Source: an uncultured Candidatus Saccharibacteria bacterium | Lineage (GTDB): Bacteria; Patescibacteriota; Dojkabacteria; J137 | Length of the DNA: 64,000 nucleotides | NCBI GenBank assembly: GCA_964607415.1 | Contig: CAZSKK010000002.1 | Coordinates: 288,585-352,584 of the forward strand | Reading direction: 5' to 3' | In this document: positions 34,668 to 42,697 of the stretch, one piece after another | Numbering within the stretch: the first letter of the stretch is position 1 | Layout: each line of letters begins with the position of its first letter | Notes under the pieces: generated by a model | Database searches by the model: none | Told to the model about the DNA's origin: nothing | What the model saw: the letters and a program-made list of their open reading frames with translations, nothing else | Program-made: the position numbers and the translations under genes

Positions 34668-36212
34668 ATGTTTATGGTTAACAGTCAAAAAAAGCTTAGA
34701 CAACCAGTAGTTGCTGTAATGGGTCACGTGGATCACGGTAAGACTTCGTTTTTGGATGCAATTAGAGGAACCAGAGTTCAGGATAAAGAAGCAGGCGGCA
34801 TTACTCAAAATACAAGAGTACACGAAGTAACTTTAAAAAATGGGTTTAAAATTACATTTATTGATACTCCCGGTCACGAGGCTTTTAGCAATATGAGAGA
34901 AAGAGGTGCTAAAGTAACAGATTTTGTAGTACTGATTGTTGCTGCAGATGATGGAATCCAACCACAGACAAAAGAATCTATAAAATTTGCACAAGATAAT
35001 GGTGTGCCAATTATTGTTGCAATTAATAAAATTGACATTGCTGGAGTAAAAACAGAAAAAATTAAAAAAGAATTGGCAAGTTTTAATGTTGTAATTGAAG
35101 AGTATGGAGGTGAGACACTTTGTTTTGAAATATCTGCTAAAACAGGTTTAAATTTAGATAAACTTTTAGAAGGGATTGAGTTACTAACAGAAGTTTCTGA
35201 GCTATCGCCAAGAGCAATTAGAGAAAATACTTTGGCTGAAGCATTTGTATTGGAATCTTTGCTGGATAAAAATCTAGGGGCAATTGCAATTTGTATTCTA
35301 AAATCTGGAAACCTTTCCGAAAGAGTTTATGCAGTTACAAAAGAAGGTACATTCAAAATTAGAGCTTATTTAAATGAAAATTTAAAACAAATAAGTACTG
35401 TTAACGAATCAGCGCCTGTGATTCTTACTGGGCTTAAAAAAGAAATTTCAGCAGGTGATACTGTTTACTTCACACAATTGGAAGAAAATGCAAAAGAGTT
35501 GGAAAAAGAACTAATTCAACAAGAGGAACAATCAGAAAAACTTACGGCAGAATCAATTTTTGCACAAATGTTGATCAATAGAGAAGAGAAGAAGCAAGGA
35601 ATAGAGCAAAAAATATTAAACATTATTTTAAAATCGTCTACGGTAGGCACTTTAGAAGCTATTAAAGTTCAACTCGAAAAACTGAATGCTGAAGATGCAA
35701 AAGTAAACATAATTGCATCGGGTACAGGATCTATTAAAGAAGAAGATATTTTTAGAGGCAAAGCTGCCAAGGCAATCGTTGTTAGCTTTCAACTTCCAAT
35801 AGATACAAAACTTCAAATGATTGCAAAGCAAGAAAAAGTATTAGTTAGAAACTATGAAATCATTTATGAACTGGTAGATGAACTGGCTGATGTTCTGGAT
35901 AGCTTAGGCTCTCCAATAGAAGAAGAAATTGAAATCGCAAGAGCGAAAGTTAAGCAAGTTTTTGAATTGAGCAATAAAAGCTTTGTGGCAGGTTGTGAAG
36001 TTACTAAAGGTACAATGCTGAAGGGCTTTAGGGTAAAAGTAGAAAGAAAGGGAATAGAACTTGGTAAAGGTAAAATTTCATCTTTAAGACAAGGTAAGAA
36101 TGAAGTTAAGGAAGTTAAAAAGGGCCTAGATTGCGGTATTCTATTAGATCCTCAAATTCCAGATATACAAGAAGGGGACGAAATAATTGCCTTCAGAATT
36201 GAACGGACCTAA
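34668..36212 (+). CDS. infB: translation initiation factor IF-2, short form (G2-C1-C2 only)
   Basis: QPVVAVMGHVDHGKTSFLDAIRGTRVQDKEAGGITQ, DTPGHEAF and NKID G-domain; 514 aa lacking the N-terminal domains of long bacterial IF-2. Confidence 0.85.
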   Translation: MFMVNSQKKLRQPVVAVMGHVDHGKTSFLDAIRGTRVQDKEAGGITQNTRVHEVTLKNGFKITFIDTPGHEAFSNMRERGAKVTDFVVLIVAADDGIQPQTKESIKFAQDNGVPIIVAINKIDIAGVKTEKIKKELASFNVVIEEYGGETLCFEISAKTGLNLDKLLEGIELLTEVSELSPRAIRENTLAEAFVLESLLDKNLGAIAICILKSGNLSERVYAVTKEGTFKIRAYLNENLKQISTVNESAPVILTGLKKEISAGDTVYFTQLEENAKELEKELIQQEEQSEKLTAESIFAQMLINREEKKQGIEQKILNIILKSSTVGTLEAIKVQLEKLNAEDAKVNIIASGTGSIKEEDIFRGKAAKAIVVSFQLPIDTKLQMIAKQEKVLVRNYEIIYELVDELADVLDSLGSPIEEEIEIARAKVKQVFELSNKSFVAGCEVTKGTMLKGFRVKVERKGIELGKGKISSLRQGKNEVKEVKKGLDCGILLDPQIPDIQEGDEIIAFRIERT

Positions 36213-36221
36213 CCATTACCC

Positions 36222-36665
36222 TTGTGCTTTATGGAATTTATAAAAGATATTAAGATCTTAACTCTTGCAAGTCTAATTATTTTAGCAACTTCTTGTGCTG
36301 AAAAAGACTATACGGCATTTATAGCCAACGAACAATATCTTGTTTTTGGACTTTCTGAAACAGATGCAAACATTCTATCTCAATATTCAGGGGTACCAAC
36401 TAATCTATTCTCCAAAATGTATTGTAAAACTGAAGTTGAAATTAATGAGGATATTTCGATTAGCACGGTAGAAATTTTTACTGGTGAGTTAAATGAAGCA
36501 TCTTTTCAAAAAATTGGAGCGATTGAATCTTTAAGATTTGATGGATCTGAAGAAGCATTATCCTTTACAATGAATGGTAAAGTCATTGAATTGAGATCAG
36601 ATTCAACTGATATTGCGCATCGAATAATGGAATTTTGTTCGGAAGACAGTGTTTCTGAAGCATAA
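36222..36665 (+). CDS. hypothetical lipoprotein
   Basis: Signal peptide with lipobox LATSC; 147 aa. Confidence 0.4.
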   Translation: MCFMEFIKDIKILTLASLIILATSCAEKDYTAFIANEQYLVFGLSETDANILSQYSGVPTNLFSKMYCKTEVEINEDISISTVEIFTGELNEASFQKIGAIESLRFDGSEEALSFTMNGKVIELRSDSTDIAHRIMEFCSEDSVSEA

Positions 36666-36670
36666 ATCAA

Positions 36671-36707
36671 ACAGGAAGGTTTGAGGATATGCCTCAAACC
36701 TTCCTGT
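36671..36707. terminator. bidirectional terminator hairpin (16-bp stem) between the lipoprotein gene and the giant surface-protein gene
   Basis: ACAGGAAGGTTTGAGG-ATATG-CCTCAAACCTTCCTGT perfect stem between convergent stops. Confidence 0.55.
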
Positions 36708-36728: not shown

Positions 36729-39700
36729 TTAACTAAACGGATTTTGCATAGTCCTCACTTTTACAAGTTCCGCTAAAGATGATTTTTTTACTTCTACCTT
36801 CTTCATTGCGATATCTTTTGATATATAGCCCCTTTCGGTAACAGTTATATTATTAGAATCCGATTCAGATACATCTGACATTACATAACCTTCTTTATTT
36901 GCAAGACACCAATATATACCTTTTCTTAATCTGATCTTCATTCTACCTTGTGCGTTTGTTAGATAAACACCAACCTGCTTGGCATCTCTATAAAATCTTA
37001 CACTTACACCAGGTAGTCCTTTTTCTGTATCTAAATCAATAACTCTACCTAATCTGCTTAAAATCAAACTTGTAGCCAGTTGCAAAAAGTTAATTATAAA
37101 AAGACCAAAGTATGCAATTATTATCAAGCTGTTTATAACATTTGGGAAAAGTGTAAACACATAAACACTATAGAAAAATCCAATCAACATTAATGCTGTA
37201 AGAATAACTCTAACCGTTTTTATTACCTCAGCTTTGTAATAAAATCTAAGTTTATTTATCAAATTTGGTTTTTTCCCAACTGGAGTTAAAGCAATATCTT
37301 CCAAAAATTCAACACTTTTACCTACTTTCTGGATATCAAACTTCTTACTAAATAATTCATATCCCTGTGCTTTAACTTCCACAGTATACGTGCCGGATTT
37401 CTCTAGAAGAATTCCATATTTACCTTCCTCATCAGAAATTACTCTAGTGATCATTTCTTTATCTTTAAAGACAGTAATATAGGCAAAAGGAATAGGTTTG
37501 TATTTGTTAACATCGAATATGAACCCCCAATATTTTTTCTTTTTTGGAATTAATATTCCATAAAGGATTCCTAGTCTTGAACTAACTTCTCTTAAGGCAA
37601 ATGGTGTGCCACCTGCAAAACTTAGAGTGTAGATAATTGTAAATGCAGTTAAAACGGCACCAAGACCGGCAGGAATTAGAGCATTTATGTCAGTTCTATA
37701 TCTAAGATCAACAAAATCAAGATTTAAAATTTCTTTCACCTCGCCTTTTTCATTTCTTGCAATTAACTGTAACTGTGTGTCTTTGTCTATATAAATTTCT
37801 GCTGAACCATCTAATGCAAGATTTTCTCCTATCCCTATAATATCAACGGAAGTTGCATTTTCTGTTTCCCAGATTACTCTATACAAAGCTCTAGTATTAG
37901 TTTCCGATAATTTTTCTGCTTCAAATTTAACAATTACTACATCTTCCACTATTTCACTTGTCAACTCGACAGGTTCTTCGTAAACCTCAACTGTTAATGT
38001 TGATCTCAAATTACCATAAGGGCCTTCTCCATCCAGATAAAAAGTAGTAGTTTTTTCTAAAGTTAATTTGGTTTCACCATTAGTTGTAACAGCCCCATAA
38101 TCTTTGTCGTCTGACCGTAGTCTTAAGATATTAAGGTTTGAAGATGTCCAACTTAATGAAAACTCTTCACCTTTTAGAACTTTATATTTATCAGATTTAA
38201 ATACTAACGAAGGAATTACGGTTATGTTGTTATTATCGATGGTGCCAATAAAGTTTATTGGCTGAGATACAGCACTACCTTCGTCGTTATAAGCACGAAG
38301 ATAATAGGTTCCCAAAACATTTGCTGTTGCGTTGGTAATTATTGCCTGACCATTAATAATTTCAGCGTTTGTTACATTAAATCCTGGAACAACTTGATTG
38401 TCAGATAATCTTCTTAGTTCAATATTGACTGGTTGACTACCTTCAACTGGGTTGTTCAAAAGATCCAAGGCATTTACAGCAAAACTAAAATTATTCCCAA
38501 CCAAAACGGTTTCTGGTTCGTTAGCTATATCCATAGAAAACCCTCTATCGGTATCGTTTAGGTAAGCAGAGTAGGAGAAACTTATATTTCCTATGACAGG
38601 AGTTGAACCTTTAGTCATAGTCACTCTAAATTTAATACGGTAGTCTTTTGTAGGAAAGTTTACAGTGCTACCAACAGCAACAGGATACCATGTTAAGCCT
38701 CCATCATTGGATACTTCATATGAAATACCCCCTGCATTAATTAATGTTTCTACGCTATCGAGAGTGATAAAGTCTGCATCTAACCTTCCTTCGATTTGAG
38801 CATCAATTTCACTACTTGCAATACCAGAAGCTGCAAAATCTCTATTTAAATTGTAATCATATACACCATGCCTTGCTAAAACTGCTCTTAAAGATCCATA
38901 TCCAGTCATGTAAAAGTCTCCAATCTCAGCAGGGTAAAGATCATTATTAATATTTAGATTTAAGATTTGATCATCAAATCTATCAGTATATGTATCGTTT
39001 ATAGAAAGGTAAATCATTCTTCCTGATACAGTCGAAATGAAGAATTGACTTCCAACAGGATATTGACCAGGTAAGTACTCCATATCTGTTCCAAAGTCAT
39101 TTACATCTTCATAGGTTGCCAATACTGTAATAGTATCATCGGCCAAGTCAAAAGTACCTTGATCGTTAGTAATGGCCTCAACTCCTCCAGGATAAGAATA
39201 AACAATATTATTGTTTTTATCCTTCACAAATGTTGAAACCATGTTTTTGCCTGGTCTAATGGTTACAGAATTATCACCAAGGTTTACAGGTGTAGCGTTA
39301 TCGTTTATTTTATATATGCCAGCTTGAAAATCTCCAAACCATACAGTATTTGTTGCTTCATCAAGGTAAAGTCCTGTAGGAATAGGTAATAAACCGCTAC
39401 AAGAACCGCTTGAACAAGAGTATGTGAAGCCAAATCCATAGGTCATTGTTTCATCATCTGCTGAGGTTGTAAAATCTCCTGGTCTAACATATCCGATTCC
39501 TGCTCCATGTGTAAAATAAACCCCGTAGTTAGGGAGACTTCTTTTGTCAATCTGAAGCATGTAAGTTTCATAATAAGACTCGCCATTGTAAATTACATAG
39601 GAGTCGTAGCCATCAGTGATACTAGTTCCAAAGTTGATCCCTAGCAATCCGGTACCTGCAGCAACCCAAACGTGATATTCACCATTTACATAAATTTCTT

Positions 39701-42611
39701 CAATTTCACTAATTTTTGCATTTTGAAAGAACACAACAGGGAATCCAGAGAAATCATAAGCACCGAATGTAGTTTCTATTCCCGTTCCAATATTATAATA
39801 GCTAAAATTATCTTCATCTTTAGTTACCCAAAAGCCGTTCGAACTACTTTGAAAAATCTTGTTTTTAACAGCATATCCACCATATTGTGGTGCAAATCCT
39901 CCTGTTAAAACAGTTGTTCTTGAAGGATTCATAGCTTCTTTTAGTCTTAATACTCCATTTCCCCAGATCAAGTCAGAAGATACTATATCATGATCATCAT
40001 GATTATCGAATGATTCTGTTTTTACAATATTTATTGCATTTTGATTAGGATCTTGAGCTACAATTTCAAATGTAATAGTTTGATTCTTGCTTTGGGTATT
40101 TGTATCATTGCCAGAATTATCTACAGCTCTTACTTCAGCAGTATGTGCCCCCAAACTCAAGCCTTCCAAAGGTAATGAGAATAACTCTTCAGTACTGTTA
40201 TTAGAGCCATCTAATGGAGGCATTGTTAACCAAGATCCACCGTCAATTCTATAGTAAATGGTTTGAATATTTGATGTTTTCTGACCAGGATCGTCTTTCA
40301 CTTTTCCTTGTAAAGGAGGGTCTTGGTCAGTAGTAGGATCTGGAATTATTGATTGAAGCTGAATATTGGGAGCTAAAGTATCAACGCTATCTATTACTAT
40401 TCTGTCTATTGTTTGGCCTTCCCCAAGAAGTGATGATGCTCCAGTAAAAGCACCAAGAATATTGCCCACTGAGTCAATAGTTCTAACTAATATTTGCTTG
40501 TTACCATCTGCTAAAAGAGTAGTTATGGAGAAGCTAAAGTCTTCTGTAGGTTCGTCAAAAGCTCCATCAATTGGTGTTGTATTAGTCCAATCGTTTTCAA
40601 AACCACTGCCTTCAGCAAAAATTCTGTATTGTACATTGGCTATGTTTACATCGGTTTCAACAGCTGTTCCGTTATAGTTAAGTGTTGGGGTTACGGTCAT
40701 ATCAATCGGTGTTTGTCCCAGTGTTGTAACGCTTTGGATAGTTGGAGCCACTGCGTCAATTATTCCAGTAAAAGGGTAATCTTGAGTTAAATTTACAGAG
40801 TTGGTAACAGTGATAACTATATCGTAAGTTGCTCCATCAGTAAGCATATTCCCATGGTCATCAAAGGTTAAGGTAAAGTCTTCGTTATTGGAATCAAAGA
40901 AAAGGTCATTTGCTGAAGCAGTAATTGGTGATTGAACTGCTTGATTGGGATTAGTAACTGAAAAAGTTGCAGTAACATTGCTTATTGTTGATTCCGGATC
41001 AGACGCAGTACCAGTGAATATCATTCTATTTCCTCCTATACCAGAGTAGCTTTGGGTAAAAGTTATACTAGCAGGTGTACTATCTGGTGCCGGACCGGTA
41101 AGAGTACCCAATAAAGATAGATCATCAATTGTAAAACCTCCAGTAGCTGTTGTGCTTACAGCTTGTCCCTCTGCATCAAAGTGAAATCGAACCTGAAAAG
41201 TACTGGTTGGAGGCGTTGCACCAAGCAAAGAATCAATATCAATTGTTGCAGCAACGTACGTACCAAGAATTGAATTTGTTCGAAGATTATATGCTTCAAT
41301 CCATTCACTAGTGTTTGATGCCCTTATGAATACTCTGTTAAGGTCTCCAAGTGCTGGATTATCATGGTGCCACATATATTGAAATTGAAGTTCAAGATCT
41401 GTAGCGGTTTGATAATTACTCAAGTCTCTAGTTAGTACTAAATCTGTCTGTGCACCCCCACCATCAACTGAATCCAAGGTTGCAGCTCCATTACCGGCAA
41501 ATTGAAAACCTCCTCCCTGTAATCTTAATCGACCATAACTTATTGTTATATCCCATTCAGATCCAATTGTGTCAGTCATGGGACCTTGTTGTACACCTTG
41601 GTCTATCGTTGTTCCAACTCCATCTTCAAATTGTTCCTGGTAAATTGTATGTTGTCCGCCTGGTATATTTATAGAATACTCAGCTACAGGCCAATAATTA
41701 CTATTTTGATCAACTGCCCTCAAATAAAAAGTATGCACACCTGGAATTCCCGCTACTGTTCCAGTTGCTGCAGAACCATCAGGTTGAATTGATAGATCTG
41801 AAGGACTGAACCAACTTCCATTGTCAAAATTGTATTCTAATGAAAGAATTTGTAGCTCCGTGACATTAGTAGATGCTCCGCTAACAGAAATATACGATCC
41901 ATTGTCAATTGCATTAACTGTAATTTCGGCTCCTCCACAATCCATAGTTCCGTTAATAGTATCGGAAACATAAGAATTACCAGGTGATTCTAGGTTAAAT
42001 TGATCGAAGGCTCGTGCTTCAATAGTGTGTGCACCGCAAGCTAGAGTATTTGCATAAACTCTTGCAGCCACAAAATCAGTTCCGTAATTTCCAAATTCTT
42101 CGGGAGCAAGTGTCCAGTCCCCTCCATCAATTCTATACTCAAGTGCCTGTACATACTCTGGTCCTGAGTTATCTTCAGTTGCTTGAACAACAACACCGTC
42201 CTGATCAGGGATTAGAATAACTGTTAAGTAGTTGGGTCTTGTTAATTGAACCATTAAATCACCTACTGGCCATGTATCTGTGTTTATATCGACAGCTCTA
42301 AAGTAAATATTATTTGTTCCTGGAGGTAGATCATTGTAGTAAAAATTTGCAACTACAAGGGTGTCAACTCCGTATGTTCCTTGACTTGCGGGGATTTGTA
42401 TCCAGTTTGCTTGATCGGTACTCCATTCAATAGAAGTGATTATTAATGCACCTGCAGAATCTGCATAAAGTTCGTAGTAGTTTATTGCATCTGTGCCACT
42501 AAGGGTAACTTCGGCAGAAGCAGTAATAAACTCTTTGGCAATTACTAGTGTACCGAACCAAGCTAGCACTATAAAGGGAATTAGTAGGGCGTATAAATAT
42601 TTTGATCTCAT
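36729..42611 (-). CDS. giant (1960 aa) cell-surface protein: N-terminal signal anchor, ~1500-aa beta-rich ectodomain, C-terminal TM helices interleaved with two CarboxypepD_reg-like domains
   Basis: N-terminal hydrophobic segment; T/S/N/G/D-rich repetitive beta-strand segments; C-terminus has at least 4 TM helices plus ITVFKDKEMITRVISDEEGKYGILLEKSGTYTVEVKAQGYELF and VSVRFYRDAKQVGVYLTNAQGRMKIRLRKGIYWCLANKEGYVM (carboxypeptidase-regulatory-like fold). Confidence 0.8.
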   Translation of the reverse strand: MRSKYLYALLIPFIVLAWFGTLVIAKEFITASAEVTLSGTDAINYYELYADSAGALIITSIEWSTDQANWIQIPASQGTYGVDTLVVANFYYNDLPPGTNNIYFRAVDINTDTWPVGDLMVQLTRPNYLTVILIPDQDGVVVQATEDNSGPEYVQALEYRIDGGDWTLAPEEFGNYGTDFVAARVYANTLACGAHTIEARAFDQFNLESPGNSYVSDTINGTMDCGGAEITVNAIDNGSYISVSGASTNVTELQILSLEYNFDNGSWFSPSDLSIQPDGSAATGTVAGIPGVHTFYLRAVDQNSNYWPVAEYSINIPGGQHTIYQEQFEDGVGTTIDQGVQQGPMTDTIGSEWDITISYGRLRLQGGGFQFAGNGAATLDSVDGGGAQTDLVLTRDLSNYQTATDLELQFQYMWHHDNPALGDLNRVFIRASNTSEWIEAYNLRTNSILGTYVAATIDIDSLLGATPPTSTFQVRFHFDAEGQAVSTTATGGFTIDDLSLLGTLTGPAPDSTPASITFTQSYSGIGGNRMIFTGTASDPESTISNVTATFSVTNPNQAVQSPITASANDLFFDSNNEDFTLTFDDHGNMLTDGATYDIVITVTNSVNLTQDYPFTGIIDAVAPTIQSVTTLGQTPIDMTVTPTLNYNGTAVETDVNIANVQYRIFAEGSGFENDWTNTTPIDGAFDEPTEDFSFSITTLLADGNKQILVRTIDSVGNILGAFTGASSLLGEGQTIDRIVIDSVDTLAPNIQLQSIIPDPTTDQDPPLQGKVKDDPGQKTSNIQTIYYRIDGGSWLTMPPLDGSNNSTEELFSLPLEGLSLGAHTAEVRAVDNSGNDTNTQSKNQTITFEIVAQDPNQNAINIVKTESFDNHDDHDIVSSDLIWGNGVLRLKEAMNPSRTTVLTGGFAPQYGGYAVKNKIFQSSSNGFWVTKDEDNFSYYNIGTGIETTFGAYDFSGFPVVFFQNAKISEIEEIYVNGEYHVWVAAGTGLLGINFGTSITDGYDSYVIYNGESYYETYMLQIDKRSLPNYGVYFTHGAGIGYVRPGDFTTSADDETMTYGFGFTYSCSSGSCSGLLPIPTGLYLDEATNTVWFGDFQAGIYKINDNATPVNLGDNSVTIRPGKNMVSTFVKDKNNNIVYSYPGGVEAITNDQGTFDLADDTITVLATYEDVNDFGTDMEYLPGQYPVGSQFFISTVSGRMIYLSINDTYTDRFDDQILNLNINNDLYPAEIGDFYMTGYGSLRAVLARHGVYDYNLNRDFAASGIASSEIDAQIEGRLDADFITLDSVETLINAGGISYEVSNDGGLTWYPVAVGSTVNFPTKDYRIKFRVTMTKGSTPVIGNISFSYSAYLNDTDRGFSMDIANEPETVLVGNNFSFAVNALDLLNNPVEGSQPVNIELRRLSDNQVVPGFNVTNAEIINGQAIITNATANVLGTYYLRAYNDEGSAVSQPINFIGTIDNNNITVIPSLVFKSDKYKVLKGEEFSLSWTSSNLNILRLRSDDKDYGAVTTNGETKLTLEKTTTFYLDGEGPYGNLRSTLTVEVYEEPVELTSEIVEDVVIVKFEAEKLSETNTRALYRVIWETENATSVDIIGIGENLALDGSAEIYIDKDTQLQLIARNEKGEVKEILNLDFVDLRYRTDINALIPAGLGAVLTAFTIIYTLSFAGGTPFALREVSSRLGILYGILIPKKKKYWGFIFDVNKYKPIPFAYITVFKDKEMITRVISDEEGKYGILLEKSGTYTVEVKAQGYELFSKKFDIQKVGKSVEFLEDIALTPVGKKPNLINKLRFYYKAEVIKTVRVILTALMLIGFFYSVYVFTLFPNVINSLIIIAYFGLFIINFLQLATSLILSRLGRVIDLDTEKGLPGVSVRFYRDAKQVGVYLTNAQGRMKIRLRKGIYWCLANKEGYVMSDVSESDSNNITVTERGYISKDIAMKKVEVKKSSLAELVKVRTMQNPFS

Positions 42612-42697
42612 TTTATAATAGAATTAAAGGCTATAATTCCAGTATAAAGTTTTTAAATGTTACTTCAAGTATTTTTTTACTCCCTCCAAGATAAATA

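Follow-up and report, generated by a model that had tools for sequence, protein, structure and literature searches.

Bacteria are known to make large surface proteins of modular build that are anchored at the C-terminus. Described examples include the sortase-anchored MSCRAMMs (SdrD, Cna) and the pilin SpaA, whose long ectodomains are built of beta-sandwich domains. Transthyretin-like domains of the CarboxypepD_reg type occur in carboxypeptidases D, N and M and in the N-terminal extension of SusC-type transporters, and periplasmic sensors such as BT4663 and BT4673 place beta-propellers outside the membrane. Bacteria of the candidate phyla radiation (CPR, or Patescibacteria) are believed to rely on direct physical contact with other cells, and few of their surface proteins have a functional handle. 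Here we describe a giant protein of 1960 residues encoded on the reverse strand (36729..42611) of a 64,000-nucleotide stretch of contig CAZSKK010000002.1 from an uncultured Candidatus Saccharibacteria bacterium (assembly GCA_964607415.1; the whole stretch is called the window below). We read this protein, with moderate confidence, as a receptor or adhesin of the cell surface, anchored in the membrane and equipped with a coupling module on the cytoplasmic side. The open reading frame (ORF) begins with ATG, is identical to a database protein and has two full-length orthologues of 79% and 76% identity; the 1960-residue surface-protein ORF named in the original prediction is thus confirmed as genuine and conserved.

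The C-terminal module and its membrane topology

Pfam recognizes two CarboxypepD_reg (PF13620) stretches in the C-terminal region (50.5 bits against a cut-off of 32.3, the best at 1696-1762). When the last 330 residues were used as query in an exhaustive HMMER search, the clusters matched (at 50% identity) numbered 1572 at E <= 1e-3, 373 at 1e-10 and 53 at 1e-30. Some matches are generic multi-repeat CarboxypepD_reg proteins, and about 112 of the best 150 clusters match the whole ~290 residues colinearly, at or near the C-terminus of proteins of 270 to 3700 residues. Nearly all of these whole-module members have an N-terminal hydrophobic segment, and helices about 300, 150 and 125 residues before the C-terminus. 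A hidden Markov model built from 30 members, the window sequence among them, scores the window ORF at 5e-107. The protein had been described as anchored by C-terminal helices; the helices are present, but the alignments indicate that they belong to a conserved module of ~300 residues, common to hundreds of proteins, and not to a simple anchor.

In an alignment of 115 modules, the first helix carries Pro1647 (numbering of the window protein) and precedes a G-x3-G hydrophobic stretch (1680-1688) that ends in Pro. This is followed by [KR]3-K, with an occupancy of 70-92%, and by Y-W-G, in which W reaches 95% and G 100%. A K/R-rich amphipathic stretch lies between the first sandwich and the helical hairpin, and a further K/R-rich stretch between the hairpin and the second sandwich. 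The hairpin turns at a Pro, and its second helix, TMd, presents Asn1827, Tyr1834 (91%) and Asn1841 at a spacing of seven residues. The extreme C-terminus reads L-x-N-P-F-[GS] (P 87%, F 97%, N 61%, L 57%). The window protein bears this signature (KKKKYWG at 1690-1696; P1823, N1827, Y1834 and N1841; NPFS at 1957-1960), and its tail, L-x-N-P-F-S, is invariant in the three orthologues.

AlphaFold2 models the module from a 30-sequence alignment with a predicted local distance difference test score (pLDDT) of 82 and a predicted template modelling score (pTM) of 0.57. The helices fall at 12-35, 39-57, 163-191 and 195-220 of the model and the sandwiches at 66-145 and 225-308 (add 1630 for protein numbering). 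In Foldseek searches of the PDB, individual sandwiches match the transthyretin-like domains of carboxypeptidases D, N and M (root mean square deviation (rmsd) 2.5-3.5 A), the SdrD B-repeats and SpaA. No solved structure there matches the whole module (query-normalised TM-score <= 0.22), in agreement with profile searches of PDB sequences. A description of the module was not found in the searched literature, which omits most subscription journals, nor was one of receiver-domain giant surface proteins in CPR bacteria. None of the essential adhesin-like proteins mentioned in the Southlakia transposon-sequencing (Tn-seq) paper could be linked to the family. What is new here is an apparently undescribed conserved anchor module of ~300 residues, assembled from known domain types in a layout without a solved analogue.

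A scan of species-representative genomes with a single peptide pattern, and therefore biased to close relatives, located 14 organism-labelled module loci. Nearly all bear CPR labels (as deposited): Dojkabacteria, Saccharibacteria, Falkowbacteria, Staskawiczbacteria, Nealsonbacteria, Parcubacteria and unclassified Patescibacteria, with one 'Bacterium BMS3Abin15'. Short members of ~375-390 residues (L016 and L017; P0084 and P0097) have almost no ectodomain, so that the module exists without giant cargo. They adjoin PAS histidine kinases, a dCache protein and an MscS-type channel, neighbors that suggest larger-genome, possibly non-CPR hosts. Family members also occur in tandem (1-567 and 576-1856 at L009; 2-622 and 699-8924 at L012), with the C-terminal end of one directly upstream of the next, and isolate SRP107338_co1_190 contributes two loci, L006 and L010; some genomes thus contain several paralogues.

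Kyte-Doolittle hydropathy of the window protein marks three membrane-grade helices in the module, TMa (1642-1666), TMc (1796-1820) and TMd (1825-1850). A fourth helix, Hb (1669-1689), has neither the length nor the hydrophobicity to cross the membrane. Insertion energies on an approximate version of the Hessa biological scale have family medians of +1.7 kcal/mol for TMa, -0.6 for TMc, -0.5 for TMd and +11.4 for Hb, which falls to 1.5 kcal/mol or below in only 1% of members. Across the family, the flank that precedes TMa has a net charge of -1.55, those after Hb, before TMc and after TMd have +2.86, +3.43 and +1.61, respectively, and the turn between TMc and TMd has -0.12; under the positive-inside rule these values place the domain side in the cytoplasm. 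Lysine averages 2.1% in the ectodomain versus 10.1% in the soluble parts of the module and is lower in the ectodomain in 70 of 70 long members, in which net charge per 100 residues is -8.3 and +3.2, respectively. Charges, lysine composition and the insertion energy of Hb together favor three membrane spans, with both transthyretin-like domains and the N-P-F tail probably in the cytoplasm. Of the at least four transmembrane helices first described as alternating with two CarboxypepD_reg domains, the two domains and the helices between them stand, the model showing two helices, a domain, two helices and a domain; four spans are less likely than three, as only three helices are membrane-grade by hydropathy in this protein. 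By the same three measures the two domains are most likely cytoplasmic and not at the surface.

Several points weigh against the three-span topology, which is built on charge, composition and an approximate hydrophobicity scale. In the AlphaFold2 model, Hb (39-57) is a helix of 19 residues that begins right behind TMa, as would also suit a hairpin, and in several homologues two helices before domain 1 stand out by hydropathy. CarboxypepD_reg domains, like those of the Cna-B and SdrD-B types, are usually extracytoplasmic. These points would suit a module of four spans in two hairpins, a layout resembling a duplication of 'two helices plus sandwich', in which the domains and the N-P-F tail would lie outside, against the membrane or the cell wall, and the module, with nothing in the cytoplasm, would serve as a pedestal on the outer face or as an anchor that binds the wall. 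However, such an arrangement would turn all three K/R-rich flanks outward, including the near-invariant [KR]3-K, and the two uncharged turns inward. It would also need Hb, far from membrane-grade across the family, to cross the membrane, and would expose soluble parts whose basic, lysine-rich composition is cytoplasm-like and unlike that of the ectodomain in every long member compared. We regard four spans as a serious but unlikely alternative.

A possible parallel to the three-span topology is found at L007 (153-1247) and L006 (123-1229), where a protein of ~365 residues is encoded directly upstream of the giant family member; it begins with two membrane helices, continues as a coiled coil and ends in a CarboxypepD_reg domain (36.7 bits in Pfam). 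By helix count and its Lys-rich tail, this domain would be cytoplasmic, a second inner-side case in the CPR.

Some relatives carry a domain whose location is less ambiguous. The N-terminus of 17 of the 61 long whole-module members (P0034, P0036, P0040, P0044, P0053, P0056, P0065, P0076, P0086, P0095, P0098, P0101, P0129, P0134, P0139, P0162 and P0031) is a conserved unit of ~250 residues, consisting of a Response_reg receiver domain and then two hydrophobic helices, and the unit is also present in the giants at a Dojkabacteria locus, L004 (1119-8885), and at L008 (376-7560). Three of five members tested score 36-43 bits with Response_reg in Pfam (cut-off 30.2). The second helix of the unit is matched by the N-terminal hydrophobic segment of three members that lack a receiver. 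Since a receiver domain must be cytoplasmic, at least this subfamily combines signalling parts in the cytoplasm with a giant region outside the cell. Iterative search with the unit found no window ORF, and the window protein starts with a signal peptide instead. The fusion of a receiver domain to a giant surface protein is unusual.

The ectodomain and its variation

The N-terminal hydrophobic segment of the giant (6-24 by Kyte-Doolittle hydropathy) had been taken for a signal anchor. The segment is present, but it leads into A-S-A before E, and relatives keep this signal-peptide shape, with small residues at -3 and -1 and then an acidic residue; the segment is thus likelier to belong to a signal peptide that is cleaved off than to a lasting anchor. 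The ectodomain, ~1600 residues, is acidic and lysine-poor, with an isoelectric point of 4.05 versus 9.64 for the soluble parts of the module in this protein. Lysine is absent over 678 consecutive residues (27-704; window 40500..42530), compared with 8.6% in other window ORFs. The signal peptide, the isoelectric point and the beta-sandwich and propeller folds, all of them indirect criteria, agree with the extracellular placement of the bulk of the chain that was first proposed. The G+C content is 38% over 40001-42000 versus 33% for the genome.

The original prediction also saw ~1500 residues of Thr/Ser/Asn/Gly-rich beta-type repeats. T+S+N+G make up ~32% of the composition, but an array of repeats was not found: a tandem-repeat protein was rejected because the gene contains no tandem DNA repeats and the ectodomain is a mosaic of about five divergent Y-x-x-D-G-G-x-W beta-sandwich domains, a jelly-roll-like domain, a propeller and immunoglobulin (Ig)-like domains. 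Pfam searches with ten ectodomain segments, in which Ig-like, Cna-B or PKD folds might have appeared, gave sub-threshold hints only and nothing significant in the first 1640 residues; the Ig-like assignment comes from the model and iterative searches. No known enzymatic domain that would explain the size of the giant was found in Pfam, NCBIfam or PHROGs, the last of which gave no match at all. A sortase substrate was rejected, as the protein has no LPXTG, PEP or other short sorting signal, only a PGF at residue 1409 inside an Ig domain, and so was an excess of N-glycosylation sequons (1.43 per 100 residues versus 1.25 expected).

Iterative searches of the collected proteins outline a core (~508-1960) common to ~16 clusters, the Dojkabacteria orthologue described below and two Saccharibacteria-labelled loci. 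This core runs from three sandwiches through a region of 405 residues (856-1260), an Asp-box sandwich and three Ig-like domains to the module. Residues 779-844 score 34.8 bits with an OmpL47-type model (NCBIfam NF047446, cut-off 40), and iterative search finds four further internal copies. The N-terminal third, with three further Y-x-x-D-G-G-x-W sandwiches and the jelly-roll-like domain, is variable across relatives. The jelly-roll-like domain (321-507) has no Pfam match and within the CPR family is confined to the closest relatives. It is 40-46% identical to domains present in up to five copies in P0004-P0018, type IX-secreted (Por_Secre_tail) giants of an unrelated 2.25-Mb genome, and may possibly have moved between lineages.

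The AlphaFold2 model of residues 850-1461, built from 16 sequences (pLDDT 85.5, pTM 0.77), has 28 strands in groups of four, which gives a seven-bladed beta-propeller, then a sandwich and then an Ig domain. The most conserved elements of the propeller are loops with the motif (N/D)-x-G-T-(P/F)-x4-D-D, which recurs about every 50 residues, and conserved acidic pairs lie at 1052/3, 1113, 1158/9 and 1213/4; one may speculate that these D-D loops could bind metal or ligand. The best Foldseek matches to the region are BT4673 and BT4663, extracellular sensor domains of Bacteroides hybrid two-component systems (E = 1.8e-10 to 5.6e-9), followed by generic WD40-type propellers (target-normalised TM-score 0.57-0.63). 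Profile searches of PDB sequences returned only single-domain or insignificant matches. Residues 1060-1074 (39395..39439) form a Cys-containing loop, GFGFTYSCSSGSCSG, which is the lowest-confidence segment of the model (pLDDT <50) and is absent from the 76%-identical orthologue, a lineage-specific insertion.

To place this variation in an evolutionary perspective, the locus can be compared with the complete 862-kb Dojkabacteria genome AP024679.1. The rpoB, rpoC and trxB genes of the window are 71-72% identical to those of this genome and syntenic with them, which upholds the small-genome (CPR) setting proposed at first and points to a lineage related to Dojkabacteria. In AP024679.1, trxB is followed by a giant of 2638 residues, convergent infB, a membrane protein of ~211 residues and rpoB, an order common to the window. 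The 2638-residue giant (locus L002) is 36% identical to the window protein over residues 631-1960 of the latter and, given the matching gene order, is its positional orthologue (trxB-giant-infB-rpoB). The L002 region orthologous to the sandwiches before the propeller gives weak Y_Y_Y and Big_13 matches. Identity between the two giants is 29% in the propeller, 38% in the Ig domains, 42% in the sandwich, 44% in the module and ~25% in the N-terminal part, whereas the housekeeping neighbors (rpoB, rpoC, trxB and infB) are 63-72% identical; the giant evolves at about double their rate.

Among the three close orthologues, invariant columns are likewise fewest in the propeller (53%) and reach 79-92% in the module. 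Strain-level variants of one orthologue differ by 19 distinct substitutions, which are confined to residues 8-1284 and spare the last 669 residues (p ~3e-4 under uniform placement); the Ig-like stalk (1353-1640) and everything from there to the C-terminus are free of such changes. A distal ectodomain and propeller that vary above a constrained stalk and module would fit an interaction surface on a conserved base.

A structural envelope protein with a housekeeping role, whether S-layer-like, a spacer or a scaffold, has to be weighed against this pattern. The single copy in the window, at a trxB-giant-infB-rpoB position conserved in two divergent Dojkabacteria-like genomes, would suit such a role, as would a ~1450-residue core architecture kept across ~16 clusters and several CPR loci and a gene with its own promoter-like site and strong terminator. 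However, no SLH or other known wall-binding or lattice-forming domain was detected in Pfam or NCBIfam, and evolution about twice as fast as in the housekeeping neighbors, with variation concentrated in the propeller and the distal domains, would rather be expected of an interaction surface. Across the family, moreover, the ectodomains differ greatly, and one in four long members has a receiver domain. We consider a structural role improbable, a little more so than the four-span module. Least likely by far is that the propeller is the catalytic glycoside hydrolase (sialidase/BNR-like) of a membrane-tethered surface enzyme: Asp-box-like loops recur in the blades and a sialidase with a carbohydrate-binding module appears at Foldseek rank 39 (integrin alphaV at rank 48), but the one canonical Asp-box lies outside the propeller, in a sandwich whose BNR match in Pfam is sub-threshold (E = 0.062), sialidase propellers have six blades rather than seven, the best fold matches are non-catalytic sensor and WD40-type propellers, and enzymatic-family and PDB-sequence profile searches came up empty.

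Features of the locus

The features of the giant and its neighbors are collected in Table 1. As first reported, infB adjoins the giant gene, and the small ORF convergent with the giant has a lipobox-like motif. This 147-residue ORF has no Pfam match and no counterpart between infB and the giant gene of the Dojkabacteria genome; a functional link was rejected on this ground, and the two genes are probably unrelated. The infB product (524 residues in the Dojkabacteria genome) is without the long N-terminal region of typical bacterial IF-2.

Table 1. Coordinates of the giant protein's segments and of neighboring features in the window (residue numbers refer to the 1960-residue protein).
Feature	Residues	Coordinates	Strand	Basis or remark
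Sec-type signal peptide (MRSK, hydrophobic 5-24, A-S-A before E)	1-33	42513..42611	-	insertion energy -1.1; cleavage inferred
Three divergent Y-x-x-D-G-G-x-W beta-sandwich domains	34-320	41652..42512	-	similar to 636-872 and 779-844
Jelly-roll-like domain	321-507	41091..41651	-	fold inferred
Three beta-sandwich domains, start of subfamily core	508-855	40047..41090	-	iterative search
N-terminal strands and seven-bladed beta-propeller (blades ~919-1268)	856-1268	38808..40046	-	AlphaFold2 model
Beta-sandwich with one canonical Asp-box, S-N-D-G-G-L-T-W (1301-1308)	1269-1352	38556..38807	-	kept in subfamily
Three Ig-like 'stalk' domains by the membrane	1353-1640	37692..38555	-	1359-1455 modelled
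First spanning helix TMa, outside to inside (predicted)	1642-1666	37614..37688	-	hydropathy, model, insertion energy +1.2
Short G-x3-G hydrophobic helix Hb, ends P-K-K-K-K, then Y-W-G	1669-1693	37533..37607	-	probably non-spanning
Transthyretin-like (CarboxypepD_reg) domain 1	1694-1776	37284..37532	-	Pfam; model pLDDT mostly >90
Transmembrane hairpin TMc, turn at Pro1823, TMd	1796-1850	37062..37226	-	hydropathy, model, alignment
Transthyretin-like (CarboxypepD_reg) domain 2	1855-1938	36798..37049	-	Pfam, model, Foldseek
Short helix and C-terminal tail L-x-N-P-F-S, stop codon	1939-1960	36729..36797	-	alignment
infB		34668..36212	+	514 residues
Convergent lipoprotein-like ORF		36222..36665	+	147 residues; lipobox-like L-A-T-S-C
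16-bp perfect hairpin between convergent genes, likely bidirectional terminator		36671..36707		sequence
Promoter-like site TTGAAG-16-TATACT		42641..42668	-	in 86-nt gap upstream of giant start codon
Protein of ~211-218 residues		32300..32956	-	also L002 10786-11421 and L009 3294-3977

With a promoter-like site upstream and a terminator hairpin downstream, the giant gene looks like its own transcription unit. The promoter-like site is a consensus match of a kind no commoner in the region than in shuffled sequence, and only its position is suggestive. A 103-residue, TTG-initiated ORF antisense within the giant gene (40366..40677, forward strand) is most likely spurious. The protein of ~211-218 residues, which starts with a membrane helix, continues as a coiled coil and ends in a domain that has conserved cysteines, is encoded near family members at three loci. 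It adjoins ftsW in the window and at L009, and rpoB in the window and at L002, possibly through mere inherited synteny.

Proposed role and comparison with known systems

In the reading that we favor, the giant would be exported by the Sec pathway and held in the cytoplasmic membrane by the conserved C-terminal module. Outside would lie the distal beta-sandwich and jelly-roll domains, a propeller 'head' with acidic loops and an Ig-like stalk. The variable distal part and the propeller would most likely bind a ligand, probably a glycan or a protein on another cell or surface. TMa would cross from outside to inside, Hb and the K-K-K-K clamp would stay at the inner face, and the TMc/TMd hairpin would follow. 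The transthyretin-like domains and the N-P-F tail would thereby come to the cytoplasmic side and could dock a partner or oligomerize. The giant would then be a transmembrane link between binding outside and a partner inside, not a passively tethered adhesin. Attachment to a host is plausible as a hypothesis and would fit both the lineage and the pattern of variation.

Other observations sit less easily with a receptor or adhesin of this kind. The window protein itself is without a receiver domain, and the relatives that bear one have different ectodomains. An all-against-all comparison of the flanking ORFs at 15 loci found no partner gene shared across lineages, only local synteny. A single copy in the window at a conserved housekeeping position would fit a structural envelope role equally well.

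If the proposed topology is true, part of each family protein is cytoplasmic and the module might couple the surface to the cytoplasm. The module also offers a simple sequence signature by which candidate contact proteins, with very diverse giant ectodomains attached, could be catalogued across CPR genomes.

The described systems resemble the giant in different parts. Both of its small domains score above the Pfam cut-off of the family found in carboxypeptidases D, N and M and in the SusC-type N-terminal extension, and the transthyretin-like domain of carboxypeptidase D superposes at an rmsd of 2.5 A over 86 columns, with 26-27% identity. Unlike in those proteins, the two domains are interleaved with C-terminal membrane helices, are probably cytoplasmic and have no peptidase or transporter attached.

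The closest folds to the propeller are those of the periplasmic sensors BT4663 and BT4673 (Reg_prop propellers with Y_Y_Y), in which, as in the topology proposed for the giant, an extracytoplasmic propeller is connected across the membrane with domains in the cytoplasm. The resemblance does not go beyond the fold, with global TM-scores of 0.22-0.32, and the giant has one propeller rather than two and no threshold match to Reg_prop or Y_Y_Y. In contrast to hybrid two-component sensors, it has no HisKA, HATPase, receiver or HTH match and no kinase, phosphotransfer or DNA-binding domain.

With the eukaryotic integrins the giant has, by analogy only, a seven-bladed propeller head, Ig-like legs, a membrane span and a short, conserved and probably cytoplasmic tail of N-P-x-aromatic type in common, and some of its relatives bear a signalling (receiver) domain; it differs in being a single chain with no detectable homology or FG-GAP match, integrins appearing only as a low-ranked fold match. 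By extension of this analogy, the module family might be a bacterial counterpart of integrin-type two-way signalling adhesins. Its domains and N-P-F tail would bind an intracellular partner, and in the receiver-bearing relatives phosphorylation would control the conformation or adhesiveness of an ectodomain held between two membrane anchors, forming a CPR system for sensing and controlling host contact. We offer this idea as a speculation that is rather doubtful as it stands.

A further likeness is to the sortase-anchored MSCRAMMs and SpaA. Like these, the giant has a signal peptide, a long modular beta-sandwich ectodomain, B-repeat-like domains of the transthyretin clan and a C-terminal anchor with a basic stop-transfer cluster. 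Where they end in LPXTG or a short sorting signal, however, the giant ends in a polytopic module of ~300 residues that carries folded domains of its own.

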